Positions 4,156 to 63,454 of a stretch of DNA of 64,000 nt are shown here, in pieces. Both the position numbers and the translations under genes were made by a program. The stretch's first letter is position 1; each line of letters begins with the position of its first letter. This DNA comes from Eledone cirrhosa. Its lineage: Eukaryota. The notes below the pieces were generated by a model, which worked only from the letters and a program-made list of their open reading frames with translations, had not been told where the DNA came from and did no database searches. The stretch lies in contig OZ024742.1 in NCBI GenBank assembly GCA_964016885.1, positions 244,156,001 through 244,220,000 on the forward strand, in the 5' to 3' direction.

Positions 4156-6174
4156 AAATAGTTTTTAGATATCCTTGCTTCTCAAAAAACAGTTTTAATT
4201 TTATTGAACTGTTTTCCACCTCTCACCACTAACTACTAGACAGTAACATTTGTCTATGTACTGCGTAAATAATAATATTCCTTGAAGCTCAGTAAGTGTT
4301 GGTGTAAAGATGACTATCCAGCCATAGAATACTGCTTCATAAACGTTGAGTCCAACCCATGCCAGCATAGAAAAGCAGACATAAAAGCAATGATACCATA
4401 CAAATACAGCATCTCATATTACAAAATATTCCTTATGCCTCTAATTCCTTGTTGTAGTAAACACCATATACTACTTAAATTTTTATTTAAATATCATCAG
4501 CTATATGGAATTATTTATATAGCAACAATTTCTCTTGAAGCTATTTATATTAGCTTGTGATTCTAATTTACCGAATGTATTTGTATAACAACAATAAATT
4601 AAGTACTAATTGCTACTTGCTTTGATTAAACTGTACTAGTGTATCATATTGATCAATATAAACCTGGTTGTTGAATTTATTCAGTGGCCTTCATGATGAG
4701 TTTTTTTTTATGCTGAATCTCAATTACTAGCATCTATTGATAATTTCCATTTTATTTATCTTATTTACATCACTCTTTTCTTCATTTAGTAACTGTTACA
4801 GACTATTTTTAGTGCTCTACAATGGCTTATTTGTTTTCTGTAAACCTGGTGATTCAAAAAAGATTTGTTTGTGGGTTTTTTTCCTCCTCCCTGTAAGAAG
4901 CCTCACACTTAATTGAATTTATTCTGATATTAGTGTCTGCAGTTCTGTAATAGAGCAGAATGGCGAAATAATTATTGGAATGGCATAAAATGGAGTTGCA
5001 TTTGGTCCTAGTTTTAAGTTGAATGTTGTGCAAAGAAACAGTAAATGTTTGTTTTGTTAATCTGAATAAAAACAAACAAAACAATTATTGAATTTCACCA
5101 GATTGTAACTTGAATAGTATGATAGTTTCTAGCATTGTTATCTTTTATTGTATATATGAGAAATGTTCTCAAATGTGTTTATCAGTGAAGATTAGGGTTT
5201 TTTCTGTAATATCAGGCAACTAAAAATTATATCTCACATGCAAGGTAAGCTCTAGTGCTATTCTTGAATTGGTTAATAAAAGCAATGAATCAATGTTTGC
5301 AATAACAAAAGAGACCTCAGCAAAATCTAAAGCTGCTTTCTCTACTAACTAGCATACATGGCCTATAAAAATGTTCATTCATGAACATATGAAGGCAGCA
5401 TTCAATCTCAAACTAATTGACTGAATTCCAGAACATTTTTTAAAGGTCAATTATTTTTGTGGGGACAAAAAAGAAAGCAGAGTAAATGGAAGGTGTGGTT
5501 TAGTGAGTTTGCTCTCCCATACCTCACAATAATACTAATTATTACTAGGAGGTTCTGAGTTCAAATCTTTGCCTGTCATTTTACTGTGATCAATAAAATA
5601 CCAGACAAGCACTGGGGTTGATTTCATTGACTTTCCTCTCCCCAAAATGACTGGCCCTCTGCCTAAAATATTATATTTAAAGAAAGAAATATTCACCACT
5701 ATCCAGGGTAGTTGAGTAGCAGAAATGATACTGCCGGGCTAATGTTGGATTTAGTTACAGTATCTATGTTTCAATTTCATCTGGGTTCATTTTCCCCTTT
5801 ACATCATTGTAGAATCAATAAAAGAAGCATTAGGATTTATTCAACTGACTTACAAAATTTGTGAAATAAAAAAAAATATTATTGCCTATAAAGTTAATAA
5901 TAGTTTATCTTTTAATGATAGGTTTTTTTAAAAAGTTAGTTCATAATATAGCCATTATATTATTAAAAGTAAAAACAAACCATCATATATAACTGAAAAG
6001 TATGTGAAATGATATTATTATAACTTGTTTTGCAGTTATATAGTGGCTGCAATTATGTGTATGTCTTCTTCATCGGTATATACTGTATAAGCATCGTATG
6101 TAAATTGTTTCTAACTGCAATTATCATCTAACACTCTTCCTGCTACAATACTTACTGTTGTATGCGGTAACTGT

Positions 6175-26798: not shown

Positions 26799-26966
26799 TT
26801 TACCAAAAATATGTATTATTACATTGTAGTTCTTGTGAATTGTATTTAGTTTGGAAGATCATTCAAATAGATTCAATTCTAACAGTTTCACTTACTGATT
26901 GTTATTGTTGTATTCATGCACTAAAAATGTTAAAAAATTTCTGAGGATGTAACTTTTATGTTTCAG

Positions 26967-27102
26967 CTATGCTCTCGATGTGGTGTGAGGAGCTGGGAAG
27001 GTTATTGTTATTAAGACATCAGAAGACACGCACGCCTGATTCGGCTAAAAGCCCAGGCATGCATCATCAGCTGCAAAAGAATATGCCTGCTGTACCTCAA
27101 AA
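26967..27102 (+). CDS. ZMIZ1: ZMIZ1-like internal coding exon (N-terminal helical region)
   Basis: tttcag|CT...AA|gtaagt splice sites. Translates (A)[44 protein letters not shown](N); [15 protein letters not shown] is the conserved ZMIZ1 N-terminal motif as I recall it. Phase 1 start, phase 2 end. Too short for the ORF track. Confidence 0.93.
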
Positions 27103-27779
27103 GTAAGTCAAGTTTCTCTTCATTTAGTTGCTTATTGTTTTTGTTGCTGTTGTTGTATTGATTTCTCACTATCGATGTTCTTTCATTAGTCAGTTGTCTA
27201 CTTATTACAATTCTTGATCAATATGCATTATTTTTCTTCACTTGCCAACTTCTGCACAAAATATAACCGGCATCAAAATGCATTATGCTGCCTTTTGTAA
27301 ATGTTAGTAGGTTTGTCACAAACCCAACCTAGATTCCAGATCACCACTACTCACTATCCAGATTCCCTCCATTATTCACTTTGCAGATTCCCTTTAGTTT
27401 TAATCACATCACCTGCATTGATATACCAGAAAAACTCAATCACCTTCCTACTTGATATACATATAACATATGAATCTCTTTCTTAAGCAACACATTTACC
27501 AATCCTTTACAGTAGAACAGTTTCTACAATCGAATCACAGCAGGCTGAACACTCTACTTGTATTTTCTGTTGATAGTGAACTTTCAAAACTTTTAAGAAA
27601 TTTTTCTCAAAAAACTATGCAGCATTACTGATAATGTTTTCTTTTTATTGGTTTTTAACATTGGTACAAGCACTTCAGTGATGACCGAGCAGACCTATAA
27701 GGAAAAGTGTTTCAGACATTATCATTCTGGCTCTGAATTTTTGTTTCTTTTTTCCTTGACATAGTGTATTTAGGACTAC

Positions 27780-46526: not shown

Positions 46527-46793
46527 TGATCCTAATGCAGCATGGCCCACAGGGAACCAAGGTGGCCAAACTCCTCAGTCTCTCTCTGTTGTGACTACAG
46601 TGTGGGGTGTTACTCAAACCACTCAAAGTGGACCTTTTACTCACAGCACACCCGGCTACACTAACACAACTATGTCTACCCCAAATTATACCCAACAACC
46701 ACAAAGTTTTGCTGGCAGTCAGATGCAAAAGGCACCGTTTAATCAACAAACTATGCCATATAGAAGGGAATCAGCAAACTACAACCGCCCAAG
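46527..46793 (+). CDS. ZMIZ1: ZMIZ1-like internal coding exon containing LSVVTTVWGVT
   Basis: ttttag|T GAT CCT...CCA AG|gtaatt. Phase 2-2, joins the previous exon in frame (AA+T = Asn). Encodes DPNAAWPTGNQGGQTPQSLSVVTTVWGVTQTTQS..., carrying the ZMIZ1/2 signature SLSVVTTVWGVT. Confidence 0.95.
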
Positions 46794-51974: not shown

Positions 51975-52044
51975 TGTATGTATATATATATATATATGTA
52001 TGTATATATATATATATATGTATGTATATATATATATGTATGTA
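51340..52044. repeat. (TA)/(TG)/(TATG) compound microsatellite upstream of the RTE
   Basis: Direct reading. Confidence 0.98.
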
Positions 52045-53970
52045 AGGGAAGCTGAGGAAAGAAAGTTCAAGCATGTTCTACAACGCGATGACCAAAAACG
52101 TGAGGTGTTCAGGATTGCTAGGCAATGCGTCAAGGAAAACCGTGATATTGTCGGGGAGAAGTGTGTACTAAACGACGATGGCACACTTGCCATCACCGAC
52201 GCTGATAAGAAGGTAGCTTGGAAGTGTCACTATGAAAGGCTTCTAAATGAGGAGAATAATTGGGAGAAAGGCAGTCTCCCCCATATCGACCCAATAGAGG
52301 GACCAGCAGTGTTAGTCGAGGGGAGGATAATAAGTAAGGCAATCAAGGATATGAAGACTGGTAAGGCGGCTGGGCCTTCGGAAATAGTTGCTGAGATGCT
52401 GAAGGCATCTGGCACGGTGGGACACACCATGGTCACCCGCATAGTTAACCAAGTCGTACAGAATGGGGTTGTTCCGAAGGACTGGCATAGCAGCATCATC
52501 GTTAACTGTTATAAGGGTAAAGGAGACGCCCTAGATAGGAGTAACTATAGAGGCATTAAATTAATCGACCAGGTCATGAAGGTCACGGAAAGAGTAATAG
52601 CGCAACTAATCAGAGAGAGAATTGACCTAGATGAAATGCAGTTCGGGTTTGTGTCAGGCAAAAGTACCACAGACGCTCTTTTCATAGTACGACAACTACA
52701 GGAGAAGTACCTAGCTAAAGGTAAACCCCTCTACTTAGCTTTTGTCGACTTGGAGAAAGCCTTCGACAGAGTCCCCCGCTCCATTATCTGGTGGGCTCTT
52801 AGAAAACTAGGCGTTGACGAATGGCTTGTGAGGGCTATACAAGCCATGTATAAAGAAACAGTCAGCAAGGTTAGAATTAACAACGAATATAGTGAAGAGT
52901 TTAGCGTAAAAGTTGGCGTCCATCAGGGCTCTGTTCTCAGTCCACTACTATTTATTATTGCCCTTCAGGCTATAACAGAGGAGTTCAAGACAGGCTGCCC
53001 ATGGGAACTCCTATACGCAGACGACCTGACACTCATAGCGGAATCAATGGCCGAGCTAGAGAAGAAATTCCAAACATGGAAGCACGGCCTAGAATCAAAA
53101 GGACTTAAAATTAACCTGGCTAAGACTAAAGTTCTAGTTTGTAGGAAAGAAAATAAGGCGGCGGTCCCTTCCGGGAAATGGTCGTGCTCGGTGTGTAGGA
53201 AAGGCGTAGGTAGAAACTCCATTTTATGTCCTAAATGCAAAGTATGGGTGCATAAAAGATGTAGTGGGATCACAGGTAAGCTAACTAAGAACATAGATTT
53301 TACATGTGGCCGGTGCTCTGGTGCAATAAGTAGCAGCAAGTGCCCACAAACTACTAGCTCTTTCAATTGCGCAGAGGGTTCTATAGAAATAGTGGACAGC
53401 TTCCGTTACCTGGGCGATAAAATCAGCAGTGGGGGAGGGTGCTCTGAAAGTACTGTAGCTAGAGTCAGAACTGGTTGGAAAAAGTTCAGAGAGCTTATAC
53501 CACTATTAGCTGCTAAAGGGTTCTCACTAAAAATGAAAGGCAGGTTGTACGATGCCTGCATACGAACAGCAATGCTGCATGGCAGTGAGACCTGGGCATT
53601 GTGTGCAGAGGATATACGCAGACTAGAGAGGAACGAAGCTTGCATGCTCCGCTGGATGTGTAACAGTAATATACGTGAACGGCAAAGCATAAACGAACTA
53701 AGGAAAAAATTAGAGATAAGAGGGATCAGATGTTGTTTACTCGAGAGAAGGCTACGTTGGTATGGACACGTGATGCGCATGAAAGTCGATAGCTGTATAA
53801 CAAAGTGCAGGGCAATAAAGATAGACGGTAGTCACGGAATAGGCAGACCTAGAAAAACCTGGGACGAGCTGATAAACTCCGACATCACACACTTACACCT
53901 CTCCAAGACAATGTCACTGGACCGAGACCTTTGGCGGTACTCAGTAACAGAGAAGACCCGCCTTACCTAA
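52045..53970 (+). CDS. Non-LTR reverse transcriptase (partial) with internal PHD finger
   Basis: 641 sense codons from REAEERKF, with [65 protein letters not shown]. The first 237 aa of the tracked 878-aa ORF are microsatellite read-through. Confidence 0.93.
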
Positions 53971-54372
53971 ATATATAGTAAAACCTACTCCAGCCAGTAG
54001 GCATCTCTAACAAAATACACCCCGTCCCACCACCCCCACCCCCACCCGATCCACACCACCCCGTTCTATGTAAAGTTATGTTGGTGCCGCGCCATCGAGG
54101 CCGAAACAAATGAGATCGTGTAGGTGTCACGACAAAAAAACACACAGTCCACGCTGTAATGTGGCCGTGTAGGCAACACGGTAAAAACCTCCCAGACCCA
54201 CACTGTAAATGTGGTTGGTGTTAGGAAGGGCATCCAACTGTAGAAAACCTGCCAGACAGTCCTATGCGAGCAAGACAATCACTCTTGCCTCAAGTGGGAC
54301 TACCCCCGTCCAAACCCATGCAAGCGTGGAACACGGACGTTAAACGTTGATGATGATGATGATGATGATGAT
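52045..54372 (+). mobile_element. Young 5'-truncated RTE-clade LINE
   Basis: Uninterrupted RT ORF, about 400-bp 3'UTR and (TGA)n tail; CpG retained; endonuclease domain missing. Confidence 0.96.
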
Positions 54373-58963: not shown

Positions 58964-59153
58964 AGCAATTTTCTAAATACATAACTCTGTTTGTTTGATT
59001 TTAGTTGCTAATTGATTTTTATTTATTTATTTTTTATTTACAAAAAAAAAAAAAAAAAAATTTTTCCTTCAAAATTCTCAATATTTTATTGACTTTTCCT
59101 TTGATTTTGGGGAAATCCTAATTTGCTTTTGTCTTATTTATTTTTCGTTTTAG

Positions 59154-59252
59154 TGGTTATCCACCCACACCGAATACCCCGGGGTCGACCCCACTCCCTC
59201 TGCCGGGTAATCATGAATACCCTGCCCCATCACCGTCAGCCCTATCTGTTGC
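59154..59252 (+). CDS. ZMIZ1: ZMIZ1-like 99-nt symmetric (phase 2-2) exon, Pro-rich; duplicate of the start of the next exon
   Basis: Long T-rich tract, then tag|T GGT TAT...GTT GC|gtgagt. GC-rich island in AT-rich DNA. Encodes GYPPTPNTPGSTPLPLPGNHEYPAPSPSALSV in frame with both neighbouring exons. Confidence 0.85.
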
Positions 59253-60510
59253 GTGAGTAATAGTGCCTAGATGTTATATCTCCACCAGTATCTGAGAACC
59301 TTGTGAAAGTTATTTTCTTGTATTTTCAATTTCTAGTCAAGCTGTTAAACTTTCACAAGTTCTCATTTATTTGGCTTCATATTTTAATTTTTCATTTGTT
59401 TTTGTTTAATTGTTTTATTTATTACTAACACCACACACACACACACCCATACATATATATATATATACACATATACTTACACATACACACATACTACACT
59501 CATAATGTTCATGTTATAGTTACACCATTATTTTCACACATACGTGTGTGTGTGTGTGTGGCATTGTTAGCATCATTCATACTTAGTTATTAATTACCAA
59601 GCAAAATGCTTAGTAGTTTTTTTAAATGAGGAAAATAATGTTAATATTTCTTACAGTTTTCATGATCTTCAAACTTAAAAGTGTCAATGCTGTTTAAAAT
59701 TCTCATGATAGTTATGATAGTTCCAGTTAATATAAAGAATGACCTTGGGTGGCCTGAATTGAGGCCTGAATTGGTTCCAAACTCTGTAGTAAGACATCCA
59801 TTCTTCTGCAGAAGTTATTGTAAACTTGTCAATTGTCAGAGAATTGACATCACATTTTATGTTTGGGTTTTCTTATGCAACAATTGATGATGAGCAAGAA
59901 ATCTAATATGAATATCTATTGTCAGTTAGACATAGTATCCTAAATATGTTAAAAGTACCATCATACTTTTAAATGTGAGATAATACCAACTCGTGATTCT
60001 ATACTTTATTTGAAATAAAATGAAATAACTAATGTTTCCCCAACATTTTTAGCTTTTCTTCTCTACTATAAGCATATAAAATGAAATACTTCATTCATAA
60101 TCTATGTCAATAGTTTAAGTTACTATTGCAGAAATATCTAGGAAATTGCTTCAGTTAGATAAGATACTATATCTTGAAGGGGCATCTATTTCCTTATATA
60201 TAGATTACATATTTCAATGCAACCCACTTAGATTAAAGACACTCACCCAACCATCTACCTCCCATTTGTATCATCTTAATGGCTAACCTTCCAATCTAGT
60301 GCAGATTGGATTATTCTGCATGATTACTTTTGACCCCATTCCAAATCAATAGTATTTAAGATGAAGAAAATAGGTCTCCTTTAATGACATAATAAGTGTG
60401 GTAACATTTTTGTGCATAAGAGTATATTTAACTGGGACAGACTTAATGGTCGACTGGATCACCACCTAATATGTCACTAAATTCACTTGGATTTCATATC
60501 AAGCACAAGT

Positions 60511-60770
60511 TTAACCCATTTAATATTAACTTGTCTGAAACCATCCTTCTTTTCTCTATAATATGATACTGCTCATTTTGAAGTATTTATATCTAAATTT
60601 AAACTTCCTGGTATCATTTTATGAAAGGCCTTTGGCTTAATTATGTTCTAAACAGAATTTTGATCATAGAGAAATTATTTATTTATACCCATCAATGTTC
60701 TTTATTTTTAAAATTAATTGAAACATGTAGACAATGTCTTTCACTAGAAATATGGCAAAGAAAGGGTTAA
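60511..60770. mobile_element. piggyBac-type MITE, old family
   Basis: TTAA|CCCATTT...AAAGGG|TTAA; shares aattaattgaaac...aaatatgg..aagaaagggtt with 58705-58963 and 15400-15470. Confidence 0.7.
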
Positions 60771-61443
60771 TGCCATATGTTTTACAACTGAAATATCCAG
60801 ATGCCAGTTATCATATTTGAAACCTCGATACATTTTTAGATTACTTTTAGGGTTGGGTCTTTCATACCAGGAAAATTCAAATCATCTTACAATTAGATCA
60901 TATCCACCTACACAAATCATTCCAATGTTACATTTTCTTGATTTAAGCTGCTTTCCCCCACTCTTTTTTTTTTCTTTCTGTATTTCTTGTGCATGATGTA
61001 TGTTTTTAGAGGGTTTTATATATATCATACGGAACTTAACAAAACAGAAAAGCATGAAACATCTAACTGTAATTTTGTTTTCACTGTAAATTATTGCCTC
61101 CAGACTACAAAATAATAATAGTAATAATAATAATAATAATTTAAAAACAAAAATGTTTAAGCTCACCCTAAAAAGATGAATATATGTATTTTGTGTATGA
61201 TATAGAATTTTTTAAAAAATTAGTATTTTATAACAAAATTGTTTGATTTTAGCATATTTGTTTGAGAGTTTAAATTATTATTTAAGACATAGTGTTAATT
61301 AAAATGTCAGAGTTGAATGTGAATATTTGTAGATTTGTAATGTTTTTATATGTATGTTTGAAAATTATTTAAAAAAAAGAAATGTTTTGAACTGGATACT
61401 TCATTTTATTATATATATGGATGTATCGAAAATCATCAAAATG

Positions 61444-61534
61444 AAGTGTTGAGGGAATATGAAAAGCATAGAAAAATGGGAAACTCTAATAAAGTGTTGA
61501 GGGAATGTGAAGTTCATAGAAAAATGGGAAACTC
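61444..61534 (+). repeat. Two-copy tandem repeat, about 49-bp period
   Basis: AAGTGTTGAGGGAAT(A/G)TGAA...CATAGAAAAATGGGAAACTC occurs twice. Confidence 0.85.
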
Positions 61535-63058
61535 AAATGTGAGAAATAGCTGTTAAAACAACCTAATGCCGTTAACAATAACAGCATGAAAGTTGGGTAA
61601 AGATATCCCTAACGAAAGAAAATAACGGCCAGTGGCCACTAGAGAAATAGAAAGTTATGAGGTTGGATGGGTGAAAAGTATGAGTGTTTAATTGAAGACT
61701 AGAAAGAAACAATTTAATATATGTTAAACTTTCAAGGCACTAACCAATAGATTCTTTTTACATTTCCAATTAGCTATATATTCATGAACTATTTTATGCT
61801 AGATAGTTGTGTACAACTCAAAAATAAACATCAGGAGATCTGTTGAACTTTTAAACTTGTTTTCTCTTTGGATTTAAGTTTCCAGTCAGTCCTGTCTGAA
61901 CTATTTATTCAAATTTCAGATCAATAAATTTCCCCTTAAATAAATAGCTGTATTCAAATCTATATGTGTACTGTGTGTCAAGTTTAATGATTTGTTTCAA
62001 TATTATTGAAAATGTTGAGTCTTAAAACATTAAATACATTAGTGTTTCTCAAAAGAATCTTATACATGAGATGAAATGTTATCTATTTTTGATTGTTAGG
62101 TTTTTAGGATATATTGTTGTTTTTTAAGAACTAAATCAATTAATGGCATTATGATTAAACACTTACTTTGTTTTCTTTCTATTGAATAGTAAATTCATAA
62201 ACTACAATACTGCTTCAATAGTTTTAGTCATCTTCCCCATCATTAGAAATTAAATGAAAATTTAATCATTGCATATAAAGTAATATATCATGGGTTTCAT
62301 TAATTCTATGCTATAGCTGTAGTGATTTCCAGAGGTTGACAGAGGAGATGGGACTGTTTGTTGTCTTTGTCCTGTTTTGAATTCATATTCTAAAGACTTA
62401 TGCATCCTTTTTTTTCAAACTATCATATAATAGACATCACACTACCTGGTCTATCTTCCTCTATTCACCTTTCTTCCCTTTTCTATGCCTCAGTGTCATT
62501 CTTGCACATTGAGCTACAATCCATATTATTCTTTTCTGTTTTTCTATTTTTCTCCTCTGGCTAAGCCTTTTTGCACCATTCTCCTCGTTCTTTGTCAGTT
62601 GAGGCATTTTTTTTTCATCTTTATTTGTGTAATTTGTCAAAAGGCATAACTTGTCTTGTCTTTGTCTCTACCTGTTTTGTTATGTCCCAATGTGCACTGG
62701 AATGAACAGTATCAACCTTAATGAACCGAAAGTGTAGTGATTCTCAGAGGTTGACTGAGGAGATGGGACTGTCCTGTGAGTCCTCTCTTTTGTGTGTATA
62801 TATATATATGTGCATGCATATACTTCATTATAGCTGTAAAGCTACATTCAAGACTCAAGGACCTGGAGTTACTGATGTAGCTATCCTATATATATATATA
62901 TATATATATACATTTATATAAGCACATACATACTCCTCTGCTCTGCAAATTAACATAATAATTTCAAAATAAATTTGAACTTACACTGTATTAGAATATA
63001 ACATAAATCTCTCCCCGTCCCCTCTGTTTAAGCTTTAAAATATATTTTCATTTTTCAG

Positions 63059-63299
63059 TGGTTACCCTCCAACCCCAAATACTCCAGGTTCTAACCCTTC
63101 CCAGATGTCCGGCAATAATGAATACCCAGCTGCTCCAGCAGCGCTGTCTGCTGCTCTGGTAGCAGCGGCTGCCACTGCCACAGCTACAGCCACAGCCACA
63201 GCCAGCATGGTAGCTATCCAAGAGCAACAGAACCAGCAGCAACAGATGAATATGAACATGAATATGAACATGAACAATCAGTATGGTCCCCAAGTACAG
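63059..63299 (+). CDS. ZMIZ1: ZMIZ1-like exon with the Ala/Thr-rich (AAAATATATATAT) motif
   Basis: tttttcag|T GGT TAC...GTA CAG|gtattt. Phase 2 start, phase 0 end. Encodes GYPPTPNTPGSNPSQMSGNNEYPAAPAALSAALVAAAATATATATATASMVAIQEQQ...; the alanine-rich motif followed by AxQE is characteristic of ZMIZ1. Confidence 0.95.
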
Positions 63300-63454
63300 G
63301 TATTTTACATTCTTACCATCTCTTACTACTCATAATAAACATTGTTGTTATTAACATGCTAGTGCCTGAGCATTCCACAGACACGTGTATCTTTAATGTA
63401 GTGGTCCCCAAGTACAGGTATTTTACATTCTTACCATCTCTTACTACTCATAAT

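Follow-up and report, generated by a model that had tools for sequence, protein, structure and literature searches.

An old partial copy of the alanine-rich exon of ZMIZ1 in Eledone cirrhosa is alternatively spliced in transcripts of close relatives

We analyzed a 64,000-nucleotide (nt) stretch of the Eledone cirrhosa genome (assembly GCA_964016885.1, contig OZ024742.1, positions 244,156,001 to 244,220,000 of the forward strand; hereafter, the window), which holds exons of the co-activator gene ZMIZ1. In this gene, an old, partial, in-frame copy of the 5' part of the alanine-rich exon precedes that exon, and in transcripts of close relatives the copy is alternatively included or skipped. We refer to the copy as the cassette and to the Ala-rich exon as its parent. 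The cassette would have been copied from the acceptor and the first 32 codons of the parent, and we propose, with a probability of roughly 55%, that its inclusion tunes a phosphorylation-dependent interaction through a second YPPTPNTPGS module. The coordinates, peptides, splice phase, and 99-nt length given for this exon in a preliminary description of the locus, made from the sequence alone, were confirmed on the sequence (Table 1).

The cassette derives from the first 96 nt of the parent exon, from which it has diverged, and the local alignment score between the two (118) exceeds chance in a comparison with 5000 shuffles (P = 0.0002). A profile of the module, run over the 84-kb gene region in six frames, found two sites only, the cassette and the parent, and these two were also the only matches at E < 0.05 in a whole-genome search with the main exon. 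The pair thus constitutes a tandem exon duplication, with adjacent homologous exons of one gene similar beyond chance. An assembly artefact was ruled out, as the copies are identical at 60 of 99 bases and both are present in independent contigs. No duplicated intron sequence between the copies was detectable by blastn, and the similarity past the cassette donor (8 of 18 bases, P = 0.06) is too weak to separate a whole-exon from a partial duplication.

The first 11 residues are identical between the copies, while 9 of the 11 codons differ silently; all seven codon pairs quoted in the preliminary description are correct. With one codon gap allowed near the cassette end, which was placed for maximum identity, 22 of 31 residues are identical, and the proportions of differing synonymous (pS) and nonsynonymous (pN) sites are 0.67 and 0.16 (Fisher P = 3e-6), corresponding to a ratio of nonsynonymous to synonymous divergence (dN/dS) of about 0.1. 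The ungapped comparison gives a pS of 0.69 and a pN of 0.26. The claim of an old duplication under purifying selection is thereby borne out. The constraint is uneven along the copy: codons 1-11 have no replacements, codons 12-17 have diverged freely (pN 0.5), and from codon 18 to the end 10 of 14 residues are kept (pN 0.13). The absence of amino acid changes against nine silent ones in codons 1-11, next to the divergence of codons 12-17, indicates selection on the motif and not on length alone.

Of 24 sequencing runs listed, 21 were guessed to be RNA by the search tool (RNA is on record for none), and six of them, from six studies and four organism labels (A-D), were mapped as assembled contigs that carry no tissue labels. 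The organisms A-D are close relatives, differing from the window at 2 of the 99 bases of the cassette; one of these changes is silent, and the other replaces Glu with Asp. RNA editing was ruled out as the source of the two variants, which are of the types A>C and A>T. Five of the six runs (X1, X5, X6, X7, and X11) contain the joint 59252>63059 with GT..AG ends. These five also gave the joint 46793>59154, deduced from loose contig ends matching the end of the upstream exon; the loose bases that precede 59152, like those that precede 63057, are the last 22-30 bases of that exon. At 46793 the upstream exon has the boundary AG|GT, so every junction is in phase 2. The skipping joint 46793>63059 was found in X5, X6, and X19. 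All three junctions are therefore used in contigs, as distinct from raw reads, of the close relatives, in agreement with the earlier claim that the exon can be skipped without a frameshift.

The proportions of the two forms varied between runs. Splice bubbles gave about 61% inclusion in X5 (inclusion depth 282 versus 180 for a 54-nt skip arm) and about 73% in X6 (21 versus 7.9), whereas X7 and X11 each had a single contig running through both copies in series. In X1 the skip arm was not among the junctions listed, and X19 had the skipped form only (a 2296-nt skip contig) together with a low-depth unspliced piece. Organism C alone showed three states in three studies (included only in X7, mixed in X6, and skipped only in X19). 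Overall, the cassette was the major or only isoform in five of six runs, across the four organism labels. Mutually exclusive use of the two exons was ruled out because both occur together in single contigs (X11 and X7); with both copies in one transcript and with skipping also seen, the exon is an additive cassette.

The cassette donor had been described as strong, which was wrong: it matches the consensus at 5 of 9 positions, compared with 7 of 9 for each of three neighboring donors by the same crude count. It lines up with the point where the Ala tract of the parent exon begins. Several other features of the surrounding introns were recorded. A stretch 170-300 nt past the cassette (window positions 59424-59560) contains an ACTAAC element, CA repeats, YCAY clusters, and a UG repeat, all candidate splicing-factor sites; they were counted without a control and are excluded from the evidence. 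Just 3' of the parent exon, a piece of a common dispersed repeat occupies positions 63359-63432, and the sequence surrounding the parent donor (about 63282-63332) recurs at about 63401-63451, giving a second donor copy 119 nt downstream that no contig was seen to use. In the intron before the cassette, a 5'-truncated long interspersed nuclear element (LINE) lies in sense orientation between TA-rich microsatellites (52042-54372, plus strand). This LINE, which we take to belong to the RTE clade, looks young and has an unbroken 642-codon frame with RVT_1 and a PHD-like finger, followed by a (TGA)n tail.

Table 1. Positions in the window of the ZMIZ1 exons and of the splice sites and intron around the cassette
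Feature	Position	Strand	Basis and remarks
ZMIZ1 exon, end of the N-terminal domain	26963..27102	+	tblastn with molluscan ZMIZ1, 76-80% identity; 5' edge approximate; phase-2 donor at 27103
Upstream ZMIZ1 exon	46527..46793	+	tblastn; donor joins the cassette or the Ala-rich exon directly
Cassette acceptor (polypyrimidine tract and AG)	59120..59153	+	Sequence; AG ends at 59153; junction used in 5 of 6 runs
Cassette exon, 99 nt, phase 2/phase 2	59154..59252	+	Encodes the YPPTPNTPGS module and four Ser/Thr-Pro sites
Cassette donor, GTGAGT after TGC	59253..59258	+	5 of 9 consensus matches; joint 59252>63059 has GT..AG ends
Intron between the copies, 3806 nt	59253..63058	+	Joint table; no duplicated intron sequence traceable by blastn
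Parent (Ala-rich) exon	63059..63299	+	Module, then Ala/Thr tract, then Gln/Met/Asn segment; in 6 of 6 runs

The gene was assigned to ZMIZ1. Molluscan ZMIZ1 proteins gave colinear exons by tblastn from 26963 to about 17.6 kb past the window, including the GBD-like and SP-RING regions. In a Pfam scan PF25527 (GBD-like domain) matches two downstream exons, and the SP-RING exons were located by tblastn at 83-90% identity. The order expected of a ZMIZ1 orthologue, a GBD-like domain followed by an SP-RING/MIZ finger, is therefore present, as is the Ala/Thr-rich motif in the N-terminal disordered region. Among the homologues of the parent exon, 26 have a specific family name, and each of these is a ZMIZ or SP-RING protein; the remainder are unnamed or hypothetical. 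Of the Zmiz1_N TPR domain, the last exon alone was located in the window and the 60 kb upstream, and as a single-exon query it had no Pfam match.

The distribution of the module across animals was assessed in ten clusters with 178 members, 97 of them listed and 87 covering the region (chiton, gastropod, bivalve, and nemertean). One module was present in 84 of the 87 (chiton, gastropods, bivalves, and the nemertean Lineus); the three with two modules by pattern are all from Tubulanus. In a first homologue search, all non-arthropod matches but one had a single module before the Ala tract. Another 109 proteins, from fish in the main and from some amniotes and chelicerates, gave no match to the pattern. 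In 91 mostly vertebrate proteins with an Ala tract, a diverged YPGGPN counterpart was found once in 38 and twice in none, in line with the earlier remark that vertebrate ZMIZ1 is not known to have such a repeat. The repeat is thus not general to Metazoa. A phase-2 acceptor is common to all three other mollusc-like metagenome loci, and in the two that cover the upstream intron (L023 and L025) the copy is absent from it, so that the outgroups have a single copy at the same exon boundary. In L025, a phase-0 donor (near 2982, minus strand) cuts the upstream exon short, and the exon structure before the module varies between lineages.

The cassette scores higher with its own parent (118) than with 15 outgroup modules (67-105), so the duplication appears to be later than the split from the other molluscan classes and earlier than the split among the sampled organisms. 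Silent sites are saturated, with 9 of 11 codons differing between the copies and 6-11 in comparisons with bivalve-like loci, and the event therefore cannot be dated from them more narrowly. Among the proteins returned, no ZMIZ1 was named as cephalopod; the 50%-identity representatives gave 38 matches with one identical unnamed open reading frame (ORF), P0224. The string GN-x-EYPA occurs in one stored protein only, the one identical to the exon in the window. One further candidate, P0238 (six matched stretches), was dropped as an unrelated tandem-repeat ORF, and an Atlas search was uninformative (best score 0.78). The comparison set had no squid, cuttlefish, or Nautilus sequences, and the lineage specificity asserted in the preliminary description accordingly stands against the other molluscan classes, with the reservation of a possible parallel doubling in a nemertean.

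This possible doubling is in Tubulanus polymorphus, where residues 240-315 of P0015 contain a pair of module-like segments, separated by 35 residues and placed ahead of the Ala tract. The pair is present in all three annotated isoforms (P0015, P0165, and P0166). The first copy is degenerate, scoring 12 bits alone and less than 10 bits in the whole protein (P = 0.005 versus its neighbor), and at 10 bits a profile search found no second module domain in any of 267 whole proteins. The first Tubulanus copy is no closer to the cassette (score 43) than to the parent exon (51), which makes the doubling, if real, independent. By this comparison, the nemertean may have doubled its module in parallel. 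The ZMIZ1 of Tubulanus and that of the window thus share two module-like segments before the Ala tract and differ in that the former has them in every annotated isoform, with a degenerate first copy.

How might the cassette act? The motif YPPTP[NT]TPG is invariant in 122 of 123 stored single-module proteins, which would be unusual for a disordered stretch and is suggestive of a short linear motif, of which such invariance would be typical. In an AlphaFold2 model of the parent exon (low confidence), residues 1-26, with the module, are coil and residues 27-74, with the Ala/Thr tract and the Gln/Met/Asn segment, form one helix. By this model, the cassette reproduces the predicted coil plus roughly the first helical turn, ending short of the Ala/Thr tract. 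As human missense variants cluster in the Ala tract of ZMIZ1 (PMC12170594, PMC9008544), a copy of the full exon might not be tolerated. The cassette has four Ser/Thr-Pro (S/T-P) sites and the corresponding parent segment two, so that inclusion raises the stretch from two to six; the module described earlier as doubled is indeed duplicated, and the sites are tripled.

We therefore envisage an original duplication that spanned the acceptor and no less than the 5' part of the Ala-rich exon, after which a weak new donor emerged where the Ala tract begins; this donor would have kept the copy in frame and the tract single and made skipping easy. The weak donor would be the cause of skipping, and the isoform differences between runs may reflect tissue or stage control. 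The twin Thr-Pro sites could be targets of proline-directed kinases of the mitogen-activated protein kinase (MAPK), cyclin-dependent kinase, or GSK3 type, and the cassette may in this way serve as a kinase-directed module, as suggested previously. Human ZMIZ1 levels respond to ERK, p38, and JNK inhibitors (PMC8955265). The increase from two to six S/T-P sites might alter how avidly, or at what threshold, the disordered region binds its partners; splicing would then control how many copies of a phospho-dependent docking motif precede the predicted alanine helix.

Several observations weigh against this proposal. The cassette scores below the parent against all 15 outgroups, indicating that constraint on the cassette is relaxed. 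The runs come from the close relatives A-D, none of which was shown to be the species of the window, and one of the two cassette differences in them, Glu to Asp, changes a residue. Conservation of the cassette relative to its intron flank is not significant alone (2 of 99 versus 6 of 88 bases, P = 0.15; one contig at depth 3.7). Contigs lose rare forms, so the included-only and skipped-only states may in part be a depth effect (X19 has a depth of 24). Phosphorylation, a binding partner, and a protein product are all predicted, and since the vertebrate counterpart of the motif has diverged, human data are no test of it.

Relaxed constraint and the weak donor are what would be expected if the exon were a tolerated leftover with variable, unregulated inclusion, which selection merely keeps harmless; the cassette does change faster than its parent. 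However, dN/dS is about 0.1 over the copy, the coding frame survives while intron similarity is gone, and the cassette dominates in most runs, which makes this explanation unlikely, if the best placed of the alternatives. Slightly less favored is a role of the cassette as a spacer that shifts the alanine helix 33 residues from upstream motifs, or as a short decoy of the helix start. The copy does end on the first five residues of the predicted helix, within the conserved last 14 codons, and the human ZMIZ1 region is described as disordered (PMC12170594), but a spacer needs no retention of 11 of 11 residues through silent-site saturation.

We regard as a little less probable still that the cassette adds a second phosphodegron for FBXW7 (SKP1-cullin-F-box, SCF), so that ZMIZ1 containing it would have a shorter half-life. 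FBXW7 does target human ZMIZ1 for degradation, by way of a MAPK-dependent site at residues 517/521, and a KLF4 degron is carried on a 34-residue splice insert (PMC8955265). The cassette TPGSTP fits the liberal pattern [TS]P..[TS]P, which TPGSNP of the parent does not. In contrast, the FBXW7 optimum, [^R][PLIVMFY][PLIVM]TPP[^RG][ST] with at most one departure (PMC8955265, section 2.2), is missed by the best cassette sites, which have two departures (Asn at P-1 and Gly at P+2), and multiply relaxed sites were mostly negative or weak in tests (PMC8955265). The liberal pattern also arises in 10% of cassette shuffles and occurs in the single module of chiton and Lineus, and so is not new in the copy. 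Moreover, ZMIZ1 of this genome already holds a conserved site, NPTPPMTP, one departure from the optimum. This motif is intact at about 5490-5530 of locus L007 (69490-69530 in window-extended coordinates); a fish ZMIZ1 orthologue has the same site at 518/522, and it is likely the equivalent of the human degron at residues 517/521. The cassette TPGSTP could be at most a weak helper degron site.

Finally, use of the exon as an alternative last exon, where donor failure would lead to an immediate stop and a short N-terminal product or a decay substrate, is very improbable: read-through meets an in-frame TGA at 59254-59256, AATAAA-type signals lie at 60014 and 60232, and a low-depth unspliced contig in X19 extends from the cassette into the intron, but upstream intron sequence is also part of that contig, which is thus pre-mRNA or DNA, none of the contigs with the upstream exon spliced to the cassette enters the intron, and the bins from 59670 to 60285 have zero depth in four of four runs.

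The proposed splice-controlled docking motif can be set beside several known systems. With the PIAS-like co-activators ZMIZ1/ZMIZ2 (Zimp10/Zimp7) of other animals, the gene shares colinear exons for the N-terminal, Ala-rich, GBD-like, SP-RING, and C-terminal regions as well as NPTPPMTP, and it differs in the optional second module, which is absent in 84 of 87 other lophotrochozoan and in all 109 further, mostly vertebrate, proteins. Tandem exon duplication is well known and usually treated for mutually exclusive exons (PMC8373072, PMC9013439), and duplicated exons mostly become constitutive (PMC8373072). Like mutually exclusive pairs, the exons described here are adjacent paralogues with a shared acceptor phase that are old, under purifying selection, and alternatively spliced; unlike them, the copy is partial and additive, and the parent exon is retained in all six runs. 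The vertebrate COE/EBF H2d exon (PMC2394523) is likewise a lineage-restricted tandem duplication repeating a short motif in a transcription regulator, but its inclusion is mandatory and its unit is a helix, whereas the ZMIZ1 cassette is skippable and its unit a predicted disordered motif. The KLF4 degron isoform (PMC8955265) resembles the cassette as an optional insert of roughly 33 residues with proline-directed phospho-sites in a transcription regulator; there, a retained intron supplies a tested degron, and here a duplicated exon fits the degron rules poorly.

The literature searched holds no description of the cassette exon; most subscription papers were outside its reach, and octopus annotations may already list both isoforms, as the isoform file of PMC9699675 may list the exon. 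The word ZMIZ1 is absent from PMC8373072 and PMC9013439, and one paper on ZMIZ1 that involves octopus uses the octopus protein for an alignment only. Octopus splicing rates are reported not to depart from those of other invertebrates (PMC9699675), and one cassette is therefore no sign of special cephalopod complexity.

Two features beyond the gene were also recorded. Long imperfect trinucleotide satellites lie 3' of ZMIZ1 (L011-L012, about 110300-115800 in window-extended coordinates); they translate as Pro/Gln/His/Thr runs and swamp unfiltered tblastn searches. Protocadherin expansion is linked with coleoids. The genome, 3.0 Gb in size, has no fewer than 121 clustered protocadherin frames, each some 800 codons long, with dense tandem single-frame clusters on its C2 (G000) at about 237.7-241.8 Mb and 251.6-253.7 Mb; taken with the molluscan affinity of the ZMIZ1 protein, these features point to a coleoid cephalopod.

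The co-activator ZMIZ1 is dosage-sensitive (PMC13687641), and its Ala-rich motif bears the highest load of disease variants without a known mechanism (PMC12170594, PMC9008544). Events of this class are common, and it would take evidence of neural regulation or of conservation throughout coleoids to make this one more than moderately surprising. A coleoid-wide, neurally regulated switch that sets the copy number of a lophotrochozoan phospho-motif beside the alanine helix, where human neurodevelopmental variants concentrate, with an independent doubling in a nemertean, is a doubtful extension of our proposal; if true, it would make the motif a dosage-sensitive control point of a co-activator of brain development. 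The locus provides a clear case of a partial exon copy turned into an additive cassette via a new donor, and the cassette is a natural comparison of one and two copies of the motif. Selection has kept an optional second copy of this motif before the Ala tract, which marks an unstudied linear motif of ZMIZ1 as functional.

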